Below, in pieces: positions 4,196-32,545 of a DNA stretch of 64,000 nt. Position numbers and translations under genes: made by a program. The notes beneath the pieces are model-generated. The model had not been told where the DNA came from. It was given only the letters and a program-made list of their open reading frames with translations, and ran no database searches. The stretch comes from Squalus acanthias. Lineage: Eukaryota. The DNA is taken from positions 31,002,001 to 31,066,000 of the forward strand of contig CM059432.1 of the NCBI GenBank assembly GCA_030390025.1, written 5' to 3'. Position 1 is the first letter of the stretch; each line of letters begins with the position of its first letter.

Positions 4196-4600
4196 GGGGT
4201 CGATTTTGAGTGCCTTCACCTGGCTTTAACGGGATGATAATGGCCTCAAAATGAGGTCGGTGGCCTTCTCGCCCCAGTAACACTGAAGACGTGACCGGCT
4301 CCATTTTAAAAGGGGTCTACCACCAGGTGTCCAAAGTATCCACCTGATTGATGCGATAGACCCTTTTATTATGGAAATCGGGGACCTATAACATAAATAG
4401 GAGCCCAATTACCATTTTAGGTAGGAAATGAGCAGGGACTGCATTAGTTCCATGGGCAATGGAAGACAAGAGGTTCTTGACAGATCGCAAGTTCCGGGTT
4501 TTAGCTCATGCACTTCGCATGCCTAAACCCGGAACTTGCGTGGCCCCTATGGGTGCATACACACCTCGTATGCACCCATAGGGGTCGCAAAATATGGCCT
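4196..4600. mobile_element. Probable MITE-like element
   Basis: Imperfect termini ggggtcgattttg ... caaaatatggcc and an internal inverted repeat (cgcaagttccgggttt / aaacccggaacttgcg). Confidence 0.5.
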
Positions 4601-4937
4601 GGTTTCTTCACAGAAAGAATATCATGAAGTGGAGTTTGTGTAGGGTAAAGGAGGAGGCAAGAACTCTGGAATCATTTAAGAAACAACCGGGCATTTTGAT
4701 GGGTAAGCTGCAATCATTTTGTGGATGGGTGAAAGAAAGAAAGAACTTGCATTTATATAGCACCTTTCATGACCTCGGGACATTGTAAAGTGCTTTACAG
4801 CCAATTAAGTACTTTAGAACTATAGTCATTGCTGTAATGTAGGTAAAGCAGCAATCAATTTGCACACAAGAAGGTCTCACAAAGTGAAATGAGAAGTCGC
4901 ACAACACCAGGTTATAGTCCAACAGTTTTATTTGAAA

Positions 4938-4975
4938 TCACAAGCTTTCGGAGCTGCTGCCCCTTCGTCAGGTGA
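4938..4975 (-). ncRNA. Minimal type I hammerhead ribozyme motif (intact core) in the Penelope terminal repeat
   Basis: Minus strand reads UCAC-CUGACGA-A-GGGGC-AGCA-GCUCC-GAAA-GC-UU-GUGA: stem I UCAC/GUGA, stem II, conserved core, palindromic AAGCUU in place of stem III. Confidence 0.85.
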
Positions 4976-7674
4976 AGTGAAGGAATACGAATCGGCAAAG
5001 CATATATAGACAGAGAACAATGCCTGTGTAGCATACAATGTCAGACGACTACAGTTAATCTTTCTGACTGCCTTTCTTCACACCTCGGCAGAGAAACAAT
5101 CAGGTCAGCCAGGAAGGCACCACATCAAAGACATAGCAAGATACAACTGAGACAATGAGGTGGGGTCACAGGGGGTCTAATGTGTCAAATGCAGTCTGTA
5201 TGGAAAACCATAAACTTCAAAATTTTTACTTTTTTTTACTGCAAATCACATCTGTGAACAAGCCAACGACAACTCGAGTCTGGATGACTCTACGTCATGT
5301 AGCGTGACATGAACCCAAGATCCCGGTTGAGGCCGTCCTCATGGGTGCAGAACTTGGCTATCAGTTTCTGCTCGATGATTTTGCGTTGTCGAGCGTCTCG
5401 AAGGCCGCCTTGGAGAACGCTTACCCGCAGATCCAAGGCTGAATGTCCTTGACTGCTGAAGTGTTCCCCGACTGGGAGGTAATAATCCTGCCTGGCGATT
5501 GTTGCGTGGTGTCCGTTCATACGTTGTCTCAGTGTCTGCATGGTCTCGCCGATGTACCATGCTCCGGTGCATCATTTCCTGCAACGTATGAGGTAGACAA
5601 CGTTGGCCGAGTCACATGAGTATGTACCATGTACCTGGTGGGTAGTGTCCTCACGTGTGATGATGGTATCTGTGTTGATGATCTGGCATGTCTTGCAGAG
5701 GTTGCCGTGGCAGGGTTGTGTGGTGTTGTGGTCGCTGTTATCCTGAAAGCTGGGTAATTTGCTGCGAACGATGGTACTTTTGAGGTTAGGCGGCTGTTTG
5801 AAGGCGAGTAGTGGAGGCGTGGGGATGGCCTTAGCGAGGTGTTCGTCATCATCGATGACATGTTGAAGGCTGCGAAGAACATGGCGTAGTTTCTCCGCTC
5901 CGGGGAAGTACTGGATGACGTAGGGTACCCTGTTGGTTGTGTCCCGTGTTCGCCTTCTGAGGAGGTCTATGCGATTATTCACTGTGTCCTGTCGGAACTG
6001 TCGATCGATGAGTCGAGCGTCATATCCCATTCTTACGAGGGCATCTTTCAGCGTCCGTAGGTGTCCATCGCGTTCCTCCTCGTCTGAGCAGATCCTATGT
6101 ATTCGCAGGGCTTGTCCATAGGGGATGGCTTCTTTAACGTGGTTAGGGTGGAAGCTGGAGAAGTGGAGCATCGTGAGGTTGTCCGTGGGCTTGCGGTAGA
6201 GTGAAGTGCTGAGGTGTCCGTCTTTGATGGAGATTCGTGTGTCCAGGAATGAAACCGATTCTGAGGAGTAGTCCATGGTGAGTTTGATGGTGGGATGGAA
6301 CTTGTTGATGTTATCGTGTAGTCTTTTCAGTGATCCTTCGCCGTGGGTCCAAAGGAAGAAAATGTCGTCGATGTATCTGGTGTACAGCGTTGGTTGGAGG
6401 TCCTGTGCAGCGAAGAAGTCTTGCTTGAATTTGTGCATGAAGATGTTGGCGTATTGGGGTGCGAATTTGGTCCCCATGGCTGTTCCGTGTGTTTGGCTTC
6501 CACCCTAACCACGTTAAAGAAGCCATCCCCTATGGACAAGCCCTGCGAATACACAGGATCTGCTCAGACGAGGAGGAACACGATGGACACCTACGGACGC
6601 AGAAAGACGCCCTCGTAAGAATAGGATATGACGCTCGACTCATCGATCGACAGTTCCGACGGGCCACAGCAAAAAATCGCATAGACCTCCTCAGAAGGCG
6701 AACACGGGACACAACCAACAGGGTATCCTACATTGTCCAGTACTTCCCCGGAGCGGAGAAACTACGCCATGTTCTTCGCAGCCTTCAACATGTCATCGAT
6801 GACGACGAACACCTCGCTAAGGCCATCCCCACGCCTCCACTACTCGCCTTCAAACAGCCGCCTAACCTCAAAAGTACCATCGTTCGCAGCAAATTACCCA
6901 GCTTTCAGGATAACAGCGACCACGACACCACACAACCCTGCCACGGCAACCTCTGCAAGACATGCCAGATCATCAACACAGATACCATCATCACACGTGA
7001 GGACACTACCCACCAGGTACATGGTATATACTCATGTGACTCGGCCAACGTTATCTACCTCATACGTTGCAGGAAAGGATGCACCGGAGCATGGTACATC
7101 GGCGAGACCATGCAGACACTGAGACAACGTATGAACGGACACCACGCAACAATCGCCAGGCAGGATTGTTACCTCCCAGTCGGGGAACACTTCAGCAGTC
7201 AAGGACATTCAGCCTCGGATCTACGGGGAAGCGTTCTCCAAGGTGGCCTTCGAGACGCACGACAACACAAAATCATCGAGCAGAAACTGATAGCCAAGTT
7301 CTGCACCCATGAGGATGGCCTCAACCGGGATCTTGGGTTCATCTCACGCTACATGACGTAGAGTCATCCAGACTCGAGTTGTCGTTGGCTTGTTCACAGA
7401 TGTGATTTCCTGTAAAAAAAAGTAACATTTTGATGTTTATGGTTTTCCATACAGACTACATTTGACACATTAGACACCCTGTGACCCCACCTCATTGTCT
7501 CAGTTGTATCTTGCTATGTCTTTGATGTGGTGCCTTCCTGGCTGACCTGATTGTTTCTCTGCCGAGGTGTGAAGAAAGGCAGTCAGAAAGATTAACTGTA
7601 GTCGTCTGACATTGTATGCTACACAGGCATTGTTCTCTGTCTATATATGCTTTGCCGATTCGTATTCCTTCACT

Positions 7675-7712
7675 TCACCTGACGAAGGGGCAGCAGCTCC
7701 GCAAGCCTGTGA
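7675..7712 (+). ncRNA. Hammerhead ribozyme motif, mutated copy
   Basis: tcac-ctgacga-a-ggggc-agca-gctcc-gcaa-gc-ct-gtga. GAAA is changed to GCAA and the conserved U before the cleavage site to C. Confidence 0.75.
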
Positions 7713-7954
7713 TTTCAAATAAAACTGTTGGACTATAACCTGGTGTTGTGCGACTTCTCACTTTTGTCCACCCCAGTCCAACACCGGCATCTCCGCATCA
7801 AAGTGAAATGAGGTAATGATCAGATAATCTGTTTTAGTGATGTTGATTGAGGGATAAATGTTGGCCAGGACACAGGAAGAATAGTGTCGTAGGATCTTTT
7901 ACCACCTGAGAGGGCAGATTAATGTTTAACGTTTCATCCAAAAGACGGCACTTC

Positions 7955-9360
7955 TGTAAGGGGTTCGGTCGTAGGTGCTTGTGCGGGGTTAGGCCTTCGT
8001 TGCCTAATACTATTGCTTGCTCTGGTCTCCGGCCAGCCTTGTTGCAATAAGCACCTGTGAGTGGTTCGACCCACTCGCCCTTACGGTTCTAACACTGGAC
8101 TTAGGTGCGAGAGCAGTAATGCAGAGAAAACTCAAATAGACCCAGTTGAATCGTACGAAATGGAAATCTTTATTGCATAGCGTCCAAAATCATGAAGTAC
8201 ATGTCATAGGCACAAATTAACGATAGTACAAGTATACATACATTCATAAAGCTTGGTCTATGGTAATGAAGAACGCACGGCACATCGTAAAAAAAGGGGG
8301 AACACATTATACTTTATCCTTAATAAAACCACCCTCCCCTATTAATACCTACACTACATCTAGATTTGTAGGATCGGGAAACATGCTCACCACTCGTGAT
8401 ACTTCGGAGAATTTTAAAGTGAGGCACTCGGCTCGTTTCGCTGCAGCACCTGACTGTCATGTGTTTGGAGGGGTCTCTGTACCCCACTTGTTTATCTTCG
8501 CTGCTGCGGCAGGCAGGCCCGACTCCCTGTTGTCATGACGAACTCGACAGAACTCGGACACGGTTGTAGAAGTCCAGAGAGACAGTCAAAAGCTCACCAG
8601 TCAAGCGAGTCCATGAAGCGGCAAGCGAATAATTGTTCAGCAGTCATCAGCGAGATAAAACAGTCAAGAGTTCAGCCCGAGTCAAGAGTCAGCAGAGATA
8701 AGAGTCGAATCCAGAGAATAAGCCTTTGATGGACATTTGTTCACTATAGTTATAGTGCTGTGTTCCCTTATCTCCCGCTCAAATCTTAATGTTTGTCCTT
8801 TGTGAAATGCTGGTGCACAAAACTCCCAGCATGGGGCGATTCTTTCCTTTAATGGGTTTCGGTAGCACCTTAAACTGGCCAACTATCCGTTAATGTTTTC
8901 CCCATTGTCGAACCGGCTAGGAGTCTCCCTGACTGGTTTTGGGGCCTCCTCGAATACTGACTTAATCACCCGAGAATGGCTCTCTCATTGTAGAGCCGTG
9001 GGGAATTTGCGTATTGATGTATCTGGATGGGCCTTCGATTGCCCATTACAATGGTCCTTACTTGTGCATGGAAAATGATTCCAGCACTTATATCTTTGCT
9101 ATTGTGTCGAATGCAGACAGGTTGCATCCTGTCTTTATCAGTGTTTGCTGCGTATTGACCAATCTTATACTGAAATGTTTATTCGAACGCCATCTTGTCT
9201 GCCCACTGAAAATCCTGGAAGCTTCTGCCACGAGGCGCAGCAGCCATTTTACAGGCTTCTGTGTCCTGTTTAATCATGACAGCATTTCGTTGAAATAAAA
9301 CTGATGAAACGAATCTGCTTTATCTCGTTATTTCGAATCGCGATAATTGCAAATTTTACA
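7955..9360 (-). mobile_element. Solo LTR (ERV- or Gypsy-type), 1406 bp
   Basis: Starts TGTAA and ends TTACA, flanked by 4-bp TSD cttc (7951-7954, 9361-9364), inserted precisely in a SINE. AATAAA on the minus strand at 8169-8174 suggests the orientation. No coding homology seen. Confidence 0.8.
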
Positions 9361-16609: not shown

Positions 16610-19600
16610 TAGTGACCCTGCTCTCATAATCTATCCAGCGACCTCTGCTCCCAATAACTATCCAATGACCCCTGCTCCCAATAACTATCCAGTGACCCCT
16701 GCTCCATCTCCATCCAATGACCGCTGCTCCTGATCTCCATCCAATGACCCCTGCTCCCGATCTCTATCCAATGATCTCTGCTCCATCTCCATCTAATAAC
16801 CCCATCTCCCGATCTCTATCCAGTGACCTCTGCTCCATCTCCATCTAATGACATCTGCTCCCGATCTCTATCCAATAACCCCTGCTCCCGAACTCTATCC
16901 AATGACCCTGCTCCCGATAACTATCCAGTGTCCTCTGCTCCATCTCCATCCAATGACCCCTGCTCCCGATCTCCTTCCAATAACCTCTGCTCCCAAAAAC
17001 TATCCAGTGACCTCTGCTCCATCTCTATCCAATGACCCCTGCTCCCAATAACTGTCCAATGACACCTGCTCGCAATAACTGTCCAATGACACCTGCTCGC
17101 AATAACTGTCCAATGACCCCTGCTCCCCATCTCTATCCAGTGTCCTCTGCTCCATCTCCATCCAATGACCCCTGCTCCCAATAACTGTCCAATGACACCT
17201 GCTCGCAATAACTGTCCAATGACACCTGCTCGCAATAACTATCCAATGACCCCTGCTCCCCATCTCTATCCAGTGTCCTCTGCTCCATCTCCATCCAATG
17301 ACCCCTGCTCCCAATAACTGTCCAATGACACCTGCTCACAATAACTGTCCAATGACACCTGCTCGCAATAACTATCCAATGACCCCTGCTCCCCATCTCT
17401 ATCCAGTGTCCTCTGCTCCATCTCCATCCAATGACCCCTGCTCCCGATCTCCTTCCAATAACCTCTGCTCCCAAAAACTATCCAGTGACCTCTGCTCCAT
17501 CTCCATCCAATGTCCCCTGCTCCGATCTCTATCCAGTGACCCTGCTCCCAATAAATATCCAGTCACCTCTGCTCCATCTCCATCCAATGACCCCTGCTCC
17601 CGATCTCTATCCAATGACCCCTGCTCCCGATCTATATCCAATGACCTCTGCTCCATCTCCATCCAATGACCCCTGCTCCCGATCTCTATCCAATGACCCC
17701 TGCTCCTAATAACTATCCAGTGACCCCTGCTCCCAATAACTATCCAGTGACCCCTGCTCCCAATAACTATCCAGTGACCTCTGCTCCATCTCCATCCAAT
17801 GACCCCCGCTCCCGATCTCTATCCAATGACCCCTGCTCCTAATAACTATCCAGTGACCTCTGCTCCCGATCTCTATCCAGTGACCCCTGCTCCCGATCTC
17901 TATCCAGTGACCTCTGCTCCCGATCTCTATCCAATGACCCCTGCTCCCAATAACTATCCAGTGACCCCTGCTCCGAATAACGATCCAGTGACCTCTGCTC
18001 CATCTCCATCCAATGACCCCTGCTCCCAATAACTATCCAGTGACCTCTGCTCCATCTCCATCCAATGACCCCTGCTCCCGATCTCTATCCAATGACCCCT
18101 GCTCCTAATAACTATCCAGTGACCCCTGCTCCGAATAACGATCCAGTGACCTCTGCTCCATCTCCATCCAATGACCCCTGCTCCCAATAACTATCCAGTG
18201 ACCTCTGCTCCATCTCCATCCAATGACCCCTGCTCCCGATCTCTATCCAATGACCCCTGCTCCTAATAACTATCCAGTGACCCCTGCTCCGAATAACGAT
18301 CCAGTGACCTCTGCTCCATCTCCATCCAATGACCCCTGCTCCCAATAACGATCCAGTGACCTCTGCTCCATCTCCATCCAATGACCCCTGCTCCCAATAA
18401 CTAACCAGTGACCCCTGCTCCCAATAACTATCCAATGACCCCTGCTCCCCATCTCTATCTAGTGACCTCTGCTTCATCTCCATCCAATGACCCCTGCTCC
18501 TGATCTCTATCCAGTGACCTCTGCTCCCGATCTCTATCCAATGACCCCTGCTCCCAATAACTATCCAGTGACCCCTGCTCCATCTCCATCCAATGACCCC
18601 TGCTCCCAATAACGATCCAGTGACCTGTGCTCCCGATCTCCATCCAATGACCCCTGCTCCCAATAACTATCCAGTGACCCCTGCTCCCAATAACAATCCA
18701 GTGACCTCTGCTCCATCTCTATCCAATGACCCCTGCTCCCAATAACTGTCCAATGACACCTGCTCGCAATAACTATCCAATGACCCCTGCTCCCCATCTC
18801 TATCTAGTGACCTCTGCTTCATCTCCATCCAATGACCCCTGCTCCTGATCTCTATCCAGTGACCTCTGCTCCCGATCTCTATCCAATGACCCCTGCTCCC
18901 AATAACTATCCGAGGACCCCTGCTCCCGATCTCTATCCAATGACCCCTGCTCCCGATCTCTATCCAATGACCCCTGCTCCCGATCTCTATCCAGTGACCT
19001 CTGCTCCCGATCTCCATCTAATGACCCCTGCTCCCAATTTCTATCCAATGACCCCTGCTCCCGATTGCTATCAAATGACCCCTGCTCCCGATCTCCATCC
19101 AATGACCTCTGCTCCCGATCTCTATCCAGTGACCTCTGCTCCCAATAACAATCCGGTGACCCCTGCTCCCGACCTCTATCCAATGACCCCTGCTCCCGAT
19201 CTCCATCCAATGACCTCTGTTCCCGATCTCTATCCAGTGACCTCTGCTCCCAATCTCCATCCAAAGACATCTGCTCCCAATCTCTATCCAATGACCCTGC
19301 TCCCAATAACTATCCAGTGACCTCTGCTCCATCTCCATCCAATGACCTCTGCTCCCAATAACTATCCAGTGACCTGTGCTCCTGATCTCTATCCAATGAC
19401 CCCTGCTCCTGATCTCTATCCAATGACCTCTGCTCCCGATCTCTATCCAATGACCCCTGCTCCCGATCTCTATCCAATGACCGCTGCTCCCCATCTCTAT
19501 TCAGTGACCTCTGCTCCCAATAACGATCCAATGACCCCTGCTCCCAATCTCTATCCAATGACCCCTGCTCCCAATAACGATCCAATGACCCCTGCTCCCA

Positions 19601-22600
19601 ATAACTATCCAGTGACCTCTCCTCCCGATCGCTATCCAATGACCCCTGCTACCGATCTCTATCCAATGACCTCTGCTCCCAATAACTATCCAGTGACCCC
19701 TGCTCCCGATCTCTATCTAATGAATCCTGCTACTGATCTCTGTCCAATGACCCCTGCTCCCGATCTCTATCCAGTGACCTCTGCTCCCGATCGCTATCAA
19801 ATGACCCCTGCTCCCGATCTCCATCCAATGACCTCTGCTCCCGATCTCTATCCAGTGACCCCAGCTCTCGATCTCTATCCAATGACCCCTGCTCCCAATA
19901 ACTATCCAATGACCCCTGCTCCAAATCTCTATCCAGTGACCCCTGCCCCCGATCTCCATCCAATGACCCCTGCTCCTGATCTCCATCCAATGACCTCTGC
20001 TCCCGATCTCTATCCAGTGACCCCTGCTCCAAATCTCTATCCAATGACCCCTGCTCCCAATAACTATCCAATGACCCCTGCTGCCGATCTATATCCAGTG
20101 ACCTCTGCTCCCGATCTCTATCCAATGACCCCTGCTCCTGATCTCCATCCAATGACCTCTGCTCCCGATCTCTATCCAGTGACCTCTGCTCCAGATCTCT
20201 ATCCAATGACCCCTGCTCCCGATCTCTATCTAATGACCCCTGCTCCCGATCTCTATCCAATGACCCCTGCTCCCGATCTCGATTTAATGACCTCTGCTCC
20301 CGATATCTATCCAATGACCTCTGCTCCCGATCTCTATCCAATGACCTCTGCTCCCTATCTCTATCCAATGACCTCTGCTCCCGATCTCTATCCAATGACC
20401 TCTGCTCCCGATCTCTATCCAGTGACCTCTGCTCCCGATCTCTATCCAATGACCCCTGCTCCCGATCTCTATCTAATGACCCCTGCTCCCGATCTCTATC
20501 CAATGACCCCTGCTCCCGATCTCTATCCAATGACCTCTGCTCCAGATCTCTATCCAATGACCCCTGCTCCCGATCTCTATCTAATGACCCCTGCTCCTGA
20601 TCTCTATCTAATGACCTCTGCTCCCGATATCTATCCAATGACCCCTGCTCCCGATATCTATCTAATGACCTCTGCTCCCGATCTCTATCCAATGACCTCT
20701 GCACCCGATCTCTATCCAATGACCTCTGCTCCTGATCTCTATCCAGTGACCTCTGCTCCTGATCTCTAGCCAGTGACGCCTGCTCCCAATAACTATCAAT
20801 GACCCCTGCTCCCGATCTATATCCAGTGACCTCTGCTCCCGATCTCCATCCAATGACCCCTGCTCCTGATCTCCATCCAATGACCTCTGCTCCCGATCTC
20901 TATCCAGTGACCTCTGCTCCAGATCTCTATCCAATGACCCCTGCTCCCGATCTCTATCCAGTGACCTCTGCTCCCGATCGCTATCAAATGACCCCTGCTC
21001 CCGATCTCCATCCAATGACCTCTGCTCCCGATCTCTATCCAGTGACCCCAGCTCCCGATCTCTATCCAATGACCCTTGCTCCCAATAACTATCCAATGAC
21101 CCCTGCTCCAAATCTCTATCCAGTGACCCCTGCCCCCGATCTCCATCCAATGACCCCTGCTCCTGATCTCCATCCAATGACCTCTGCTCCCGATCTCTAT
21201 CCAGTGACCCCTGCTCCAAATCTCTATCCAATGACCCCTGCTCCCAATAACTATCCAATGACCCCTGCTCCCGATCTATATCCAGTGACCTCTGCTCCCG
21301 ATCTCTATCCAATGACCCCTGCTCCTGATCTCCATCCAATGACCTCTGCTCCCGATCTCTATCCAGTGACCTCTGCTCCAGATCTCTATCCAATGACCCC
21401 TGCTCCCGATCTCTATCTAATGACCTCTGCTCCCGATATCTATCCAATGACCCCTGCTCCCGATATCTATCTAATGACCTCTGCTCCCGATCTCTATCCA
21501 ATGACCTCTGCTCACGATCTCTATCCAATGACCTCTGCTCCCGATCTCTATCCAGTGACCTCTGCTACTGATCTCTATCCAGTGACGCCTGCTCCCAATA
21601 ACCATCCAGTGACCCCTGCTCCCGATCTCTATCCAGTGACCTCTGCTCCATCTCCATCCAATAACCTCTGCTCCCGATTTCTATCCAGTGACCTCTGCTC
21701 CCAATCTCTATCCAATGACCTCTGCTACCGATCTCTATCCAATGACCCCTGCTCCCAATCTCTATCCAATTACCTCTGCTGCCGATCTCTATCCAGTGAC
21801 CTCTGCTCCTGATCTCCATCCAAGGACCTCTGCTCCCGATCTCTATCCAGTGACCTCTGCTCCATCTCGATCCAATGACCCCTGCGCCCAATAACTATCC
21901 AATGACCCCTGCTCCTGATCTCTATCCAATGAACCCTGCTCCAGATCTCTATCCAGTGACGTCTGTTCCCGATCTCCATCTAATGACCCCTGCTCCAATA
22001 ATGATCCAATGACCCCTGCTCCCGATCTCCATCTAATGACCCCTGCTCCTGATCTCTATCCAGTGACCTCTGCTCCCGATCTCTATCCAATGACCCCTGC
22101 TCCCAATAACTATCCAATGACCCCTGCTCCCGATCTCTATCCAATGACCCCTGCTCCCGATCTCTATCCAATGACCCCTGCTCCCGATCTCTATCCAGTG
22201 ACCTCTGCTCCCGATCTCCATCTAATGACCCCTGCTCCCAATTTCTATCCAATGACCCCTGCTCCCGATTGCTATCAAATGACCCCTGCTCCCGATCTCT
22301 ATCCAGTGACCTCTGCTCCCAATAACTATCCAGTGACCCCTGCTCCCGACCTCTATCCAATGACCCCTGCTCCCGATCTCCATCCAATGACCTCTGCTCC
22401 CGATCTCTATCCAGTGACCTCTGCTCCCGATCTCCATCCAAAGACCTCTGCTCCCAATCTCCATCCAATGACCCTGCTCCCAATAACTATCCAGTGACCT
22501 CTGCTCCATCTCCATCCAATGACCTCTGCTCCCAATAACTATCCAGTGACCTGTGCTCCTGATCTCTATCCAATGACCCCTGCTCCCGATCTCTATCCAA

Positions 22601-25600
22601 TGACCTCTGCTCCCGATCTCTATCCAATGACCCCTGCTCCCGATCTCTATCCAATGACCCCTGCTCCCCATCTCTATTCAGTGACCTCTGCTCCCAATAA
22701 CGATCCAATGACCTCTGCTCCCATTCTCTATCCAATGACCCCTGCTCCCAATAACGATCCAATGACCCCTGCTCCCAATAACTATCCAGTGACCTCTCCT
22801 CCCGATCGCTATCCAATGACCCCTGCTCCCGATCTCTATCCAATGACCTCTGCTCCCAATAACTATCCAGTGACCCCTGCTCCCGATCTCTATCTAATGA
22901 ACCCTGCTCCTGATCTCTGTCCAATGACCCCTGCTCCCGATCTCTATCCAGTGACCTCTGCTCCCGATCGCTATCAAATGACCCCTGCTCCCGATCTCCA
23001 TCCAATGACCTCTGCTCCCGATCTCTATCCAGTGACCCCAGCTCCCGATCTCTATCCAATGACCCCTGCTCCCAATAACTATCCAATGACCCCTGCTCCA
23101 AATCTCTATCCAGTGACCCCTGCCCCCGATCTATATCCAATGACCCCTGCTCCTGATCTCCATCCAATGACCTCTGCTCCCGATCTCTATCCAGTGACCT
23201 CTGCTCCTGATCTCTATCCAGTGACGCCTGCTCCCAATAACTATCCAGTGACCCCTGCTCCCGATCTCTATCCAGTGACCTCTGCTCCATCTCCATCCAA
23301 TAACCTCTGCTCCCGATCTCTATCCAGTGACCTCTGCTCCCAATCTCTATCCAATGACCTCTGCTCCCGATCTCTATCCAATGACCCCTGCTCCCAATCT
23401 CTATCCAATTACCTCTGCTGCCGATCTCTATCCAGTGACCTCTGCTCCTGATCTCCATCCAAGGACCTCTGCTCCCGATCTCTATCCAGTGACCTCTGCT
23501 CCATCTCGATCCAATGACCCCTGCGCCCAATAACTATCCAATGACCCCTGCTCCTGATCTCTATCCAATGACCCCTGCTCCCGATCTCTATCCAATGAAC
23601 CCTGCTACAGATCTCTATCCAGTGACGTCTGCTCCCGATCTCCATCTAATGACCCCTGCTCCTGATCTCTATCCAGTTACCTCTGCTCCCGATCTCTATC
23701 AAATGACCCCTGCTCCCGATCTCCGTCCAATGACCTCTGCTCCTGATCTCTATCCAGTGACGCCTGCTCCCAATAACTATCCAGTGACCCCTGCTCCCGA
23801 TCTCTATCCAGTGACCTCTGCTCCTGATCTCCATCCAAGGACCTCTGCTCCCGATCTCTATCCAGTGACCCCTGCTCCAAATCTCTATCCAATGACCCCT
23901 GCTCCCAATAACTATCCAATGACCCCTGCTCCCGATCTATATCCAGTGACCTCTGCTCCCGATCTCTATCCAATGACCCCTGCTCCTGATCTCCATCCAA
24001 TGACCTCTGCTCCCGATCTCTATCCAGTGACCTCTGCTCCAGATCTCTATCCAATGACCCCTGCTCCCGATCTCTATCCAGTGACCTCTGCTCCCGATCG
24101 CTATCAAATGACCCCTGCTCCCGATCTCCATCCAATGACCTCTGCTCCCGATCTCTATCCAGTGACCCCAGCTCCCGATCTCTATCCAATGACCCCTGCT
24201 CCCAATAACTATCCAATGACCCCTGCTCCCGATCTATATCCAGTGACCTCTGCTCCCGATCTCTATCCAATGATCCCTGCTCCTGATCTCCATCCAATGA
24301 CCTCTGCTCCCGATCTCTATCCAGTGACCTCTGCTCCAGATCTCTATCCAATGACCCCTGCTCCCGATCTCTATCCAGTGACCTCTGCTCCCGATCGCTA
24401 TCAAATGACCCCTGCTCCCGATCTCCATCCAATGACCTCTGCTCCCGATCTCTATCCAGTGACCCCAGCTCCCGATCTCTATCCAATGACCCCTGCTCCC
24501 AATAACTATCCAATGACCCCTGCTCCAAATCTCTATCCAGTGACCCCTGCCCCCGATCTCCATCCAATGACCCATGCTCCTGATCTCCATCCAATGACCT
24601 CTGCTCCCGATCTCTATCCAGTGACCCCTGCTCCAAATCTCTATCCAATGACCCCTGCTCCCAATAACTATCCAATGACCCCTGCTCCCGATCTATATCC
24701 AGTGACCTCTGCTCCCGATCTCTATACAATGATCCCTGCTCCTGATCTCCATCCAATGACCTCTGCTCCCGATCTCTATCCAGTGACCTCTGCTCCAGAT
24801 CTCTATCCAATGACCCCTGCTCCCGATCTCTATCTAATGACCCCTGCTCCCGATCTCTATCCAATGACCCCTGCTCCCGATCTCTATCTAATGACCTCTG
24901 CTCCCGATATCTATCCAATGACCCCTGCTCCCGATATCTATCTAATGACCTCTGCTCCCGATCTCTATCCAATGACCTCTGCTCCCGATCTCTATCCAGT
25001 GACCCCTGCTCCAAATCTCTATCCAATGACCCCTGCTCCCAATAACTATCCAATGACCCCTGCTCCCGATCTATATCCAGTGACCTCTGCTCCCGATCTC
25101 TATCCAATGACCCCTGCTCCTGATCTCCATCCAATGACCTCTGCTCCCGATCTCTATCCAGTGACCTCTGCTCCAGATCTCTATCCAATGACCCCTGCTC
25201 CCGATCTCTATCTAATGACCCCTGCTCCCGATCTCTATCCAATGACCCCTGCTCCCGATCTCTATCTAATGACCTCTGCTCCCGATATCTATCCAATGAC
25301 CCCTGCTCCCGATATCTATCTAATGACCTCTGCTCCCGATCTCTATCCAATGACCTCTGCTCCCGATCTCTATCCAATGACCTCTGCTCCCGATCTCTAT
25401 CCAGTGACCTCTGCTCCTGATCTCTATCCAGTGACGCCTGCTCCCAATAACTATCCAGTGACCCCTGCTCCCGATCTCTATCCAGTGACCTCTGCTCCAT
25501 CTCCATCCAATAACCTCTGCTCCCGATCTTTATCCAATTACCTCTGCTCCCGATCTCTATCCAGTGACCTCTGCTCCATCTCCATCCAATGACCTCTGCT

Positions 25601-27250
25601 CCCGATCTCTATCCAGTGACCTCTGCTCCATCTCCATCCAATGACCCCTGCGCCCAATAACTATCCAATGACCCCTGCTCCTGATCTCTATCCAATGACC
25701 CCTGCTCCCGATCTCTATCCAATGAACCCTGCTCCAGATCTCTATCCAGTGACGTCTGCTCCCGATCTCCATCTAATGACCCCTGCTCCAATAATGATCC
25801 AATGACCCCTGCTCCCGATCTCCATCTAATGACCCCTGCTCCTGATCTCTATCCAGTTACCTGTGCTCCCGATCTCTATCAAATGACCCCTGCTCCCGAT
25901 CTCCGTCCAATGACCTCTGCTCCCGATCTCTATCCAGTGACCTCTGCTCCCAATCCCTATCCAGTGACCCCTGCTCCCGATCTCTATCCAGTGACCCCTG
26001 CTCCCAATCTCTGTCCAGTGACCCCTGCTCCCGATCTCTGTCCAGTGACCCCTGCTCCCGATCTCTATCCAATGACCCCTGCTCCGGAGTCCATCCAATG
26101 ACCTCTGCTCCCAATCATTATAGAAACATAGAAACATAGAATCTAGGAGCAGGAGTAGGCCATTCGGCCCGTCGAGCCTGCTCCACCATTCAATACGATC
26201 ATGGCTGATCATCCAAATCCAGTACCCTGTCCCTGCTTTAATCCCCACAGTACACATATCCCACCCTACCCCCGTAACCCCATGTATTTAATTCACCCTA
26301 ACATATCCCATCCTATCCCCACATATTTAATCCCCCCCTAACACTAAGAGTCAATTTATCAAAGCCAAATCAACCTAACCCGCACATTTTTGGACTGTGG
26401 GAGGAAACCGGAGCACCCGGAGAAAACCCACGCAGACACGGGGAGAATGTGCAAACTCCACACAGACAGTCACCTGAGGTCAGATTCGAACCCAGGTCCC
26501 TGGCGCTGTGAGACACCAGTGCTAACCACTATGCCACCGTGTTGCCCTGCTCCCAATCTCTATCCAGTGACCTCTGCTGCGATCTCTATCCAATGACCCC
26601 TGCTCCTGATCTCTATCCAATGACCCCTGCTCCCAATAACTATCCAGTGACCTCTGCTCCCGATCTCTATCCAGTGACCTCTGCTCCCAATCTCTATCCA
26701 ATGACCACTGCTTCCGATCTCTATCCAATGACCCCTGCTCCCAATAACTATCCAGTGACCTCTGCTCCCGATCTCTATCCAATGACCCCTGCTCCCGATA
26801 ACTATCCAGTGACCTCTGCTCCCGATCTCTATCCAATGACCTCTGCTCCTGATCTCTATCCAATGACCTCTGCTGTCGATCTCTATCCAATGACCCCTGC
26901 TCCCAATCTCTATCTAGTGACTTCTGCTCCTAATTTTAATCCAGTGATCCCTGCTCCTCATCTTTATTCAGTGACCCCTGCTCCCAATTACTTTCCAGTG
27001 ATCAATATCCAGTGACCTCTGCTCCCAATCACTATCCAGTGATCTTTGCATCCAATTACAATCCCTTGACCCCTGCTCCTGATCTCTTTCCTGTGATCCC
27101 TAATGTCAAGCACTATCTATTGACCCCTGCTTTCAATTACTATCCAGTGGCCCTTGCTCCCAATTACTAACCAGTGAACCTTGCATGACCCCGGTCCTGA
27201 TCTCTATCCATTGATCCCTGCTCTCAATCACTATTCAGTAACCCTGCTTC
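16610..27250 (+). repeat. ~10.6-kb minisatellite, 27-bp unit (ccaatgacccctgctcccgatctctat) with 25-bp and aataac variants
   Basis: Directly visible tandem array of roughly 380 units, decaying at the right edge and containing duplicated multi-unit blocks. Confidence 0.98.
26120..26547 (-). mobile_element. HE1-type V-SINE inserted in the minisatellite
   Basis: Reverse complement of 1569-2001 with few differences. Confidence 0.9.
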
Positions 27251-30967: not shown

Positions 30968-31575
30968 AAGAAAGAAAGCAAGACTTGCATTTATATAGCA
31001 TCTCTCATGACCTCAGGACATCCCAAAGCACTTTACAATGAAGTACTTTTGAAGTGTAGTCACTGTTGTAATGTAGGAAACACAGCAGCCAATTTACACA
31101 CAGCAAGGTCCCACAAACAGCAATGAGATAATGACTAAATAATCTGATTTAGTAATTTGGTTGAGGGATAAATATTGGCCAGGACACCAGGGAGAACGAA
31201 AATGAACAAGGTCGTCCTCCCCACTGACCTGGCCAATATTTATCCCTCAACCAACATCACTATATATATATATATACCTTGTTATCGATTTGTATTCCCT
31301 CACTGTGCCTGACGAAGGAGCAGAGCTCCGAAAGCTCGTAATTTCAAATAAAACTGTTGGACTATAACCTGGTGTTGTGCGACTTCTCATTTTTGTCCAC
31401 CCCAGTCCAACACCGGCATCTCCGCATCAACATCACTAATGTGAGAGCTTGCTGTGTACAAATGAGCTGCATTACAACAATGACTACACTTCAAAAGTAC
31501 TTTATTGGCTGTAAAGCATTTTTAGACATTCCAAGGTCATGACAGACACTATATAAATGCTAATTCTTTCTTTCT
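30968..31575. mobile_element. Two Deu-SINE 3' halves in opposite orientation (30968-31197 minus, 31228-31575 plus)
   Basis: Both match the SINE at 50-362. The plus copy is interrupted at 31263-31427. Confidence 0.8.
31263..31427 (+). mobile_element. Short Penelope 3' terminus with hammerhead motif (31306-31340)
   Basis: tgc-ctgacga-a-ggagc-aga-gctcc-gaaa-gc-tc-gta followed by sequence nearly identical to 7713-7798. 11-bp TSD caacatcacta (31252-31262, 31428-31438). Confidence 0.88.
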
Positions 31576-32495: not shown

Positions 32496-32545
32496 CTGGT
32501 GTTGTGCGACTTCTCATTTTTGTCCACCCCAGTCCAACTCTGCAT
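32496..32545 (+). mobile_element. 50-bp Penelope extreme 3' fragment
   Basis: ctggtgttgtgcgacttctcatttttgtccaccccagtccaac matches 7740-7782. Flanked by the 9-bp direct repeat tataaatta. Confidence 0.8.

Follow-up and report, generated by a model that had tools for sequence, protein, structure and literature searches.

Two head-to-head copies of a Neptune-like Penelope element in a SINE-like repeat of Squalus acanthias, probably primed from both ends of one staggered cut

The locus and its element

The Squalus acanthias DNA that we analysed (a stretch of 64,000 nucleotides, hereafter the window) contains two 5′-truncated copies of a Penelope-like element (PLE) that point outward on opposite strands and share one target-site duplication (TSD) inside a SINE-like repeat (Table 1). 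On the element, their 3′ ends lie about 40 nt apart and coincide with the two borders of a tail. The first-pass annotation had described the unit as reverse-complement arms of about 1.27 kb around a 340-bp spacer with the RT core, and had proposed aligning the arms. The alignment bears this description out. The inverted arms (4894-6155 on the minus and 6496-7756 on the plus strand) are 97% identical with 340 nt between them, the local alignment of 4887-6155 (-) with 6496-7763 (+) comprising 1231 matches, 24 transitions, 13 transversions and 1 indel (97.0% identity), and the RT motifs GTAMG and YIDD are both found in the spacer. A stop reported at 5572 in the left arm, with the frame open in the right, is also there: the TGA at 5572-5574 (-) is matched by GGA at 7077-7079 in the right arm, where the frame stays open to 7361.

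Table 1. Coordinates of the inverted unit, its motifs and its target site within the window
Feature	Position	Strand	Description
Host SINE-like repeat, left piece	4731..4879	(-)	4731-4894 aligned with 30970-31128, 80%; colinear with right piece
Left TSD	4880..4893	(+)	3′ end TGAG (up to AAATGAG) complementary to element at tail start
Left copy	4894..6496	(-)	1603 nt, 5′-truncated, tail-less: RT core, thumb, Cys linker, GIY-YIG, 3′ terminal region
Minimal hammerhead motif, left	4938..4975	(-)	core intact: TCAC CTGACGA, stem II, GAAA GCT T, GTGA
Spacer	6156..6495	(-)	340 nt, the left copy's additional 5′ part; GTAMG at 6486, YIDD at 6375
Inversion junction	6495..6497		1 shared nucleotide (G6496), no filler, no palindrome
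Right copy	6496..7798	(+)	1303 nt, 5′-truncated, tailed; frame open to TAG 7359-7361
Right-copy motifs		(+)	CX4CXXC 6939, YLIRC 7056, YIG 7095, NGH 7134, EHF 7185
TATA-like and Inr-like	7642..7674	(+)	predicted; TATA-like 7642-7648, 21 nt, Inr-like TCACT 7670-7674
Hammerhead motif, right arm	7675..7712	(+)	altered at 7702 and 7707
Predicted stem-loop	7726..7783	(+)	loop 7755-7765 contains start point of left copy
One-sided tail	7757..7798	(+)	42 nt; 38 nt (7761-7798) if 4-nt microhomology is assigned to left arm
Right TSD	7799..7812	(+)	first 2 nt (CA) also fit element end
Host SINE-like repeat, right piece	7813..7954	(-)	7807-7881 aligned with 31122-31196, 86%

The spacer is colinear with the left arm but not with the right. 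Its family homology extends to 6496 and that of the right arm begins at 6496; since the loose contig ends that mark these limits meet there from both sides, one nucleotide is common to both copies at the junction. A stem scan for a palindrome at the junction found none, the only stem being one of 4 bp whose centre, 6510, falls outside it. The right copy lacks 340 nt that are present in the left, and the left copy lacks the right copy's tail of 38-42 nt, so neither arm is a DNA copy of the other.

Judged by its sequence, the element is a high-copy, 5′-truncated, Neptune-like PLE of a cartilaginous fish. In a tblastn comparison, the left copy (6498-5296) matches residues 243-643 of the homolog P0001 in one frame with 89% identity, the RT being followed by a C-terminal GIY-YIG domain, and the right copy matches residues 357-643 with 88%; the N-terminal part of the ORF is absent from both. 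Among 1248 candidates of 504-2000 residues, 16 are related to the right-arm protein. Sharks supply the best of these matches (Heptranchias, 88-89%; Mustelus and Scyliorhinus, 81%), while a turtle RT protein is 36% identical. The RVT_1 domain is matched with E = 5e-9 by P0001 and with only 0.001 by the truncated copy, and a Pfam scan of the right-arm protein gave no match. With a profile of the family alignment, a single PDB match was obtained, phage T4 endonuclease II (2wsh, E = 0.002), which we take to be a GIY-YIG enzyme. The linker at 6939 reads CHGNLCKTC, its cysteines (C148, C153 and C156) being invariant in the alignment. In the CCHH motif, C191 and C195 are invariant and H215 nearly so (10 sequences), the second His lying in EHF at 7185; a DKG motif was seen in the homologs P0001 and P0005. 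The earlier assignment to Penelope elements is supported by the frame joining RT and GIY-YIG, the Cys linker, CCHH and the one-sided tail.

From these motifs, and by the definitions in PMC8557442, the element is a C-terminal-endonuclease PLE with a Neptune/Nematis linker, the CX2-5CXXC form being shared by Neptune and Nematis and not exclusive to Neptune; the same source gives this linker as absent from Penelope and Poseidon. Like the Neptune clade as described there, the element combines RT, the CX2-5CXXC linker, GIY-YIG with CCHH, a vertebrate host and a terminal minimal hammerhead. Neptune has a bias towards microsatellites (PMC8557442), whereas the target here is SINE-like; both this unit and the copy at 31286 lie in SINE-like repeats and not in microsatellites (n = 2), and microsatellite targeting is a bias rather than a strict feature of Neptune. 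Hammerhead pairs on opposite strands, 100-700 bp apart, are described in PMC4209133, and the hammerhead architecture here is as in that paper. A minimal hammerhead pattern matches twice in the 64-kb window, both times within copies of the family, and cleavage is putative; stems I and II are present in the fold of the left motif (z -0.87). Rfam gave no hammerhead match for the terminal motif of the element; its sole match, to a snoRNA model (E = 2.3), we took as chance.

The window holds no full-length copy of the family, both copies of the unit being truncated within the ORF. To place them among other copies, we compared 6156-8100 with four public contig sets: X1 and X6 (the latter possibly RNA) from one organism, X5 from a further sample of that organism, of which about 55% was read, and X19 from a different organism. 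In X1, 47,748 of 21,695,765 contig records match this stretch, so the family is abundant. The colinear joint from 6156 to 6496 across strands was found in 8, 6, 2 and 9 contigs of the four sets, which indicates that ordinary copies have the left copy's colinear arrangement and that the inversion is peculiar to this locus. None of the 32 contig pieces listed (111,793 more exist) bridges 6495/6496 or 7798/7813 or represents an empty site, gaps at these points being uninformative. There is no more than a hint of another cluster of 3′ ends near 7760, from 6 of the 12 rows of one table and from 0 of the 24 loose-end rows listed. A 21-nt terminal motif had no match in viral contigs and none in metagenome contigs; its one match in a prokaryote genome is a chance match in unrelated bacterial DNA. 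Among 237 pattern matches in metagenomes, no related locus was confirmed. As for host genes, the scan took in 15 of the 40 ORFs of at least 150 aa, namely those that lie in neither the element nor the large tandem arrays; 2 match RT and 0 a host family, and short exons would escape such a scan.

Target site, shared alleles and arm divergence

The exact 14-mer CAAAGTGAAATGAG stands at 4880-4893 and again at 7799-7812 (14 of 14 positions), and the chance of such a match in a 30 x 30 set of positions is about 3e-6. Compared with the uninterrupted copy of the host repeat at 31114-31127, the same 3 letters differ on both sides; the 14-mer is therefore duplicated locus-specific DNA, a true TSD, as had been proposed for a 14-bp direct repeat around the whole unit in a SINE. 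Both flanks align to adjoining parts of the uninterrupted copy (30970-31196) when the TSD is counted once. The strand and the name of the host repeat (DeuSINE/SacSINE1-like) are our assumption. The repeat is broken again at 7955 by an LTR-like insert. The tail, earlier put at about 38 bp, is indeed confined to the right arm; it measures 42 or 38 nt because the last 4-7 nt of the left arm overlap the TSD, and it is also present in a short family copy at 31286-31430. Contigs leave the compared stretch behind 7800 (133 in X1 and 119 in X5), which means that the right TSD's first 2 nt fit the element as well.

The abundance of the family and the lack of a bridging contig among those listed would both be expected if two copies had inserted independently, or if the assembly had folded back on itself. 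We nevertheless regard these readings as extremely improbable. A single TSD with locus-specific letters encloses the unit, no second TSD is found at its centre, and the arms have rare alleles in common. An assembly artefact would have to accommodate 37 arm differences with CpG decay on both sides, and is unlikely because the arms differ and have each lost CpG.

The shared alleles emerged from rows of the contig comparison at which letters differ. Forty such rows were listed, out of 80 in all, and 31 of the forty were examined after removal of 4 that lie in the spacer and 5 for which X19 was mainly responsible; depth in these rows is summed contig depth and not copy number, and, as the comparison covered the right side (6156-8100), changes private to the left arm are deduced. 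At 16 of the 31 rows the arms differ and the left arm bears the family letter; at the other 15 the arms agree. Five rows (7144, 7257, 7380, 7432 and 7617) have a rare letter in both arms against a letter with at least 90% of the depth in both X1 and X5, and three of these five are at CpG sites; at a sixth site, 6622, the figure is 98% in X1 and 10% in X5. The arms also agree at 7 of the 9 arm rows that are polymorphic in X1 (10-90%). Such shared rare alleles point to a single, already aged source locus or to later conversion, and not to independent insertions. As far as these alleles go, both copies are shown to come from the same source lineage, which is not proof of one RNA molecule. The annotation had suggested asking whether either arm is closer to other copies than to its partner. 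This is a weak test, since either arm, once aged, should lie closer to the majority of the family, and shared rare alleles are a better one. The claim of a single insertion thus stands on one locus-specific TSD, the lack of a second TSD at the centre and the shared rare alleles.

Leaving the junction site aside, the arms differ by 36 substitutions, 14 of them at 142 CpG sites and 22 elsewhere (2.0%); CpG was lost 5 times on the left, 5 times on the right and twice on both. The coding part has a pN/pS of 0.62, with 9 synonymous changes out of 28 (p = 0.26 against neutrality, a weak test). Overall, the differences look neutral and are compatible with neutral decay. They are spread unevenly, with a tract of 225 nt at 7477-7701 free of differences (p = 0.04) and clustering at p = 0.03, and gene conversion between the arms may therefore have reshaped them. 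Polarisation by hand assigned 21 changes to the right arm and 11 to the left, with 4 unassigned (p = 0.11).

These irregularities bear on the idea that twin priming used RNAs of two source loci and that gene conversion later produced the shared alleles, in which case the distance between the arms would give no age. The CpG type of three of the five shared rare alleles, the difference-free tract, which contains one shared allele, and the polarisation by hand are what such a history would lead one to expect. We consider it quite unlikely all the same, for the shared rare alleles are scattered from 7144 to 7617 between sites at which the arms differ, the arms agree at most rows polymorphic in X1, and synonymous changes are not significantly enriched.

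The K2P distance between the arms is 0.030 ± 0.005, and about 1.5% per arm serves as a rough relative age. The suggestion that the arms date the insertion as LTR pairs do holds insofar as the differences look post-insertional; such dating is only approximate, because the arms were not necessarily identical at insertion and their differences are uneven. With the rate of 7e-10 per generation reported for the epaulette shark (CI 1.4-14.1e-10; PMC10587355), an absolute age of about 21 million generations (11-107 million) results, which we set aside because the range is too wide and the age probably too high. The insertion is probably fixed, as the divergence per arm is several times the diversity of 0.002 given for the epaulette shark in the same source.

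Probable priming from both ends of the cut

How did two copies come to lie head to head within one TSD? The most probable answer, in our judgement, is that a Neptune-like PLE inserted once into a SINE-like repeat, with cDNA synthesis primed at both ends of a staggered cut. The GIY-YIG nuclease would nick both strands 14 nt apart. Priming would start from the bottom-strand end at the tail's far border (about 7800) and from the top-strand end at the near border (about 7756-7763), within a predicted loop; the stem-loop concerned is no stabler than shuffles (z -0.93). A single RNA copied twice, or two transcripts from the same locus, might have served as template. Both cDNAs would halt early, at 1603 and 1303 nt, their 3′ ends would be joined head to head at G6496, and each would template the second strand of the other. 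Roughly neutral decay, about 1.5% per arm, would have followed. The unit is dead on arrival, the N-terminal part of the ORF being absent, and no function is indicated.

Dual priming is reasonably well favoured as the best-supported mechanism. Each arm contains sequence absent from the other, the junction is free of palindromes, and the left microhomology is complete (7 of 7) with respect to the copy at 31386. Specifically, the reverse complement of the TSD end, CTCATTT, is found 7/7 in that copy and with identical letters in a copy near 32513, while the top-strand TSD end is complementary to the start of the right-arm tail (7757-7763) at 4 nt exactly and at 6 of 7 overall. Microhomologies thus amount to 4-7 nt on the left, 2 nt on the right and 1 nt in the centre, those of 1-2 nt being within chance. 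The features of twin priming are present, namely a TSD that was kept and microhomology at the second primer (4-7 nt) and at the inversion point (1 nt). On the other side, a single locus was examined, and short homology is present and ATT absent at both inferred nicks, whereas the anole Poseidon protein initiates without homology to the cut DNA and prefers ATT (PMC11167929).

In vitro, the same anole protein cuts and extends both target strands; on either strand, synthesis begins at two sites flanking the tail, and the protein is predicted to form a dimer (PMC11167929). In Poseidon of Anolis carolinensis, as here, two copy ends bound the tail, and extension on two strands would give the structure seen at our locus. 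Poseidon belongs to another clade, without the Cys linker (PMC8557442), and it starts 111-118 nt inside the ORF (PMC11167929). In L1 twin priming (10.1101/2024.08.27.596794; PMC2837659), as here, both ends prime, the 5′ part is inverted, micro-complementarity is found at the inversion point and the TSD is kept. L1 twin priming may also duplicate sequence at the inversion point (10.1101/2024.08.27.596794; 10.1101/2024.12.14.628481), and with such an internal duplication has the same geometry on a small scale (10.1101/2024.08.27.596794). However, in L1 the second priming site is well within the RNA and the median duplication is 22 bp (10.1101/2024.08.27.596794), as opposed to 1.26 kb without poly(A) here. 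Nearly the whole sequence is duplicated at our locus because both starts are about 40 nt apart.

The annotation had attributed the insertion to fold-back or template switching. If a cDNA or DNA end had turned on itself and copied the first arm, inverted arms with shared rare alleles would indeed result. But the left cDNA could not yield the tail, nor the right cDNA the spacer of 340 nt, the copies have just 1 nt in common at a junction devoid of a palindrome, and an extra RNA-templated step would be required, so that fold-back, with unique sequence in each arm, is very unlikely. Template switching fits in the loose sense that two cDNA ends were joined.

A stricter form of switching involves one primer: a tail-primed cDNA copies 1303 nt, jumps to antisense RNA or to the other strand of a copy, and returns to the tail border, where it is joined by microhomology. 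It belongs to the family of antisense and self-priming models argued, with antisense templates, in PMC3846280. The final structure would be identical, the left-end microhomology would be equally expected of a LINE-type 5′ join, and the TATA-like tract at 7642-7648 can be read both ways. We think this route unlikely, since the junction lacks the palindrome that motivated the model of PMC3846280 and since the stop of the second leg at the tail border, an RT start site in vitro (PMC11167929), needs a separate explanation.

If priming from both ends is correct, the inverted copy and the one-sided tail of PLEs may even share one cause: a dimer would use sense RNA to prime from the two target ends, each at its own internal start site, and short primer-RNA pairing in the loop of the tail hairpin would set the tail-less end. 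We put this forward tentatively, as a conjecture that could well fail. Were it true, it would replace the explanation by antisense self-priming, and the many shark copies would provide a test at base resolution, each inverted pair carrying a rough internal clock. No such proposal for PLEs was found in the literature searched, which did not take in older papers on PLE structure.

Known layouts and pairing of the arms

The combination of an inverted copy, a one-sided tail and one TSD is a published PLE layout (PMC3846280, PMC8557442), as the annotation had noted in speaking of inverted pseudo-LTRs and a tail; only the long arms and the clean junctions are notable. An adjacent inverted truncated copy and a tail of 30-40 bp are described as frequent in PLEs (PMC8557442), and Pen2a_Av of Adineta vaga has an inverted repeat, a 9-bp TSD and a one-sided tail of 31 bp (PMC3846280). 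In Pen2a_Av/Pen2_Av (PMC3846280, PMC8557442), as here, a 5′-truncated inverted copy lies head to head with the main copy within one TSD (9-10 bp, compared with 14 bp here), with a tail of 30-40 bp on one end in both. The terminal repeat of Pen2a_Av likewise has TATA, about 20 nt and TCACT (PMC3846280). On the other hand, the inverted repeat of Pen2a_Av/Pen2_Av is about 0.2 kb, as against 1.26 kb with both copies truncated in the ORF, and this truncated unit shows no direct pLTR and its junction no palindrome.

As a dead repeat with a published layout, the locus matters little by itself, and its use is that of a clean insertion footprint. The origin of the tandem and inverted structures of PLEs is called undefined (PMC8557442) and the steps after first priming are left unvalidated (PMC11167929). 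A survey of junctions across the abundant shark family could separate dual priming from antisense self-priming.

The annotation had also suggested that the DNA could extrude a cruciform. In yeast, recombination at Alu inverted repeats drops 300-fold when the spacer is lengthened from 12 to 100 bp and is further reduced by divergence, although arms far apart can still pair where long single-stranded DNA is present (PMC10164571). Extrusion is unlikely here on these grounds, the spacer measuring 340 nt and the arms differing by 3%. A hypothetical read-through RNA could pair across the arms as dsRNA, 1225 of 1261 positions being complementary and the longest perfect run being 225.

Shorter copies of the element and a possible intron

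The Neptune-like Penelope-like element (PLE) of the head-to-head insertion at 4880-7812 has a short family member at 31286-31430, which BLAST extends to 31269. This copy resides in a SINE-like repeat other than the one hosting the main locus and is flanked by an 11-bp target-site duplication, CAACATCACTA, whose first 2 nt also match the end of the tail, as at the main locus. On its 5′ side lies a TA run overlapping the PLE TATA tract, and stem II of its hammerhead motif has A-T in place of G-T.

Repeat features of the window
Feature	Position	Description
LTR-like insert	7955-9360	1.4 kb; ends TGTAA...TTACA; 4-bp CTTC duplication
C-rich minisatellite	16630-26116	27-bp unit, 354 copies
Arrays related to this minisatellite	26547-27184	
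Short PLE copy	31286-31430	hammerhead motif to full tail
PLE fragment	32496-32538	terminal region and tail; 43 nt, 98% identical

The 68-nt segment 7709-7776 in the PLE terminal region of the main locus may represent a retained intron. Its GT sits at the putative hammerhead cut position, and its 3′ side carries CTCAC and a pyrimidine tract, followed by AG at 7775-7776. A 75-bp intron in the Penelope pLTR is described in PMC8557442. None of the 15 joints listed for four public contig sets aligned to 6156-8100 matches the putative intron.

PLE pieces in annotated shark genes

The right-arm protein search found PLE protein pieces (71-82% identity) inside several annotated shark gene isoforms. The proteins concerned (relatives P0006, P0008, P0010-P0012, P0014 and P0016) include septin 5a, XRCC5 and USP8; the pieces represent either exonised copies or gene-model errors.

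Neighbouring repeats

The LTR-like insert splits the PLE-bearing SINE-like repeat, which continues from 9367. Directly left of this host repeat, 4486-4584 contains two neighbouring perfect inverted repeats, one with 16-nt arms and a 23-nt loop, the other with 17-nt arms and a 7-nt loop. The large minisatellite displays strong GC skew, and its frames without stops reach 699 codons.
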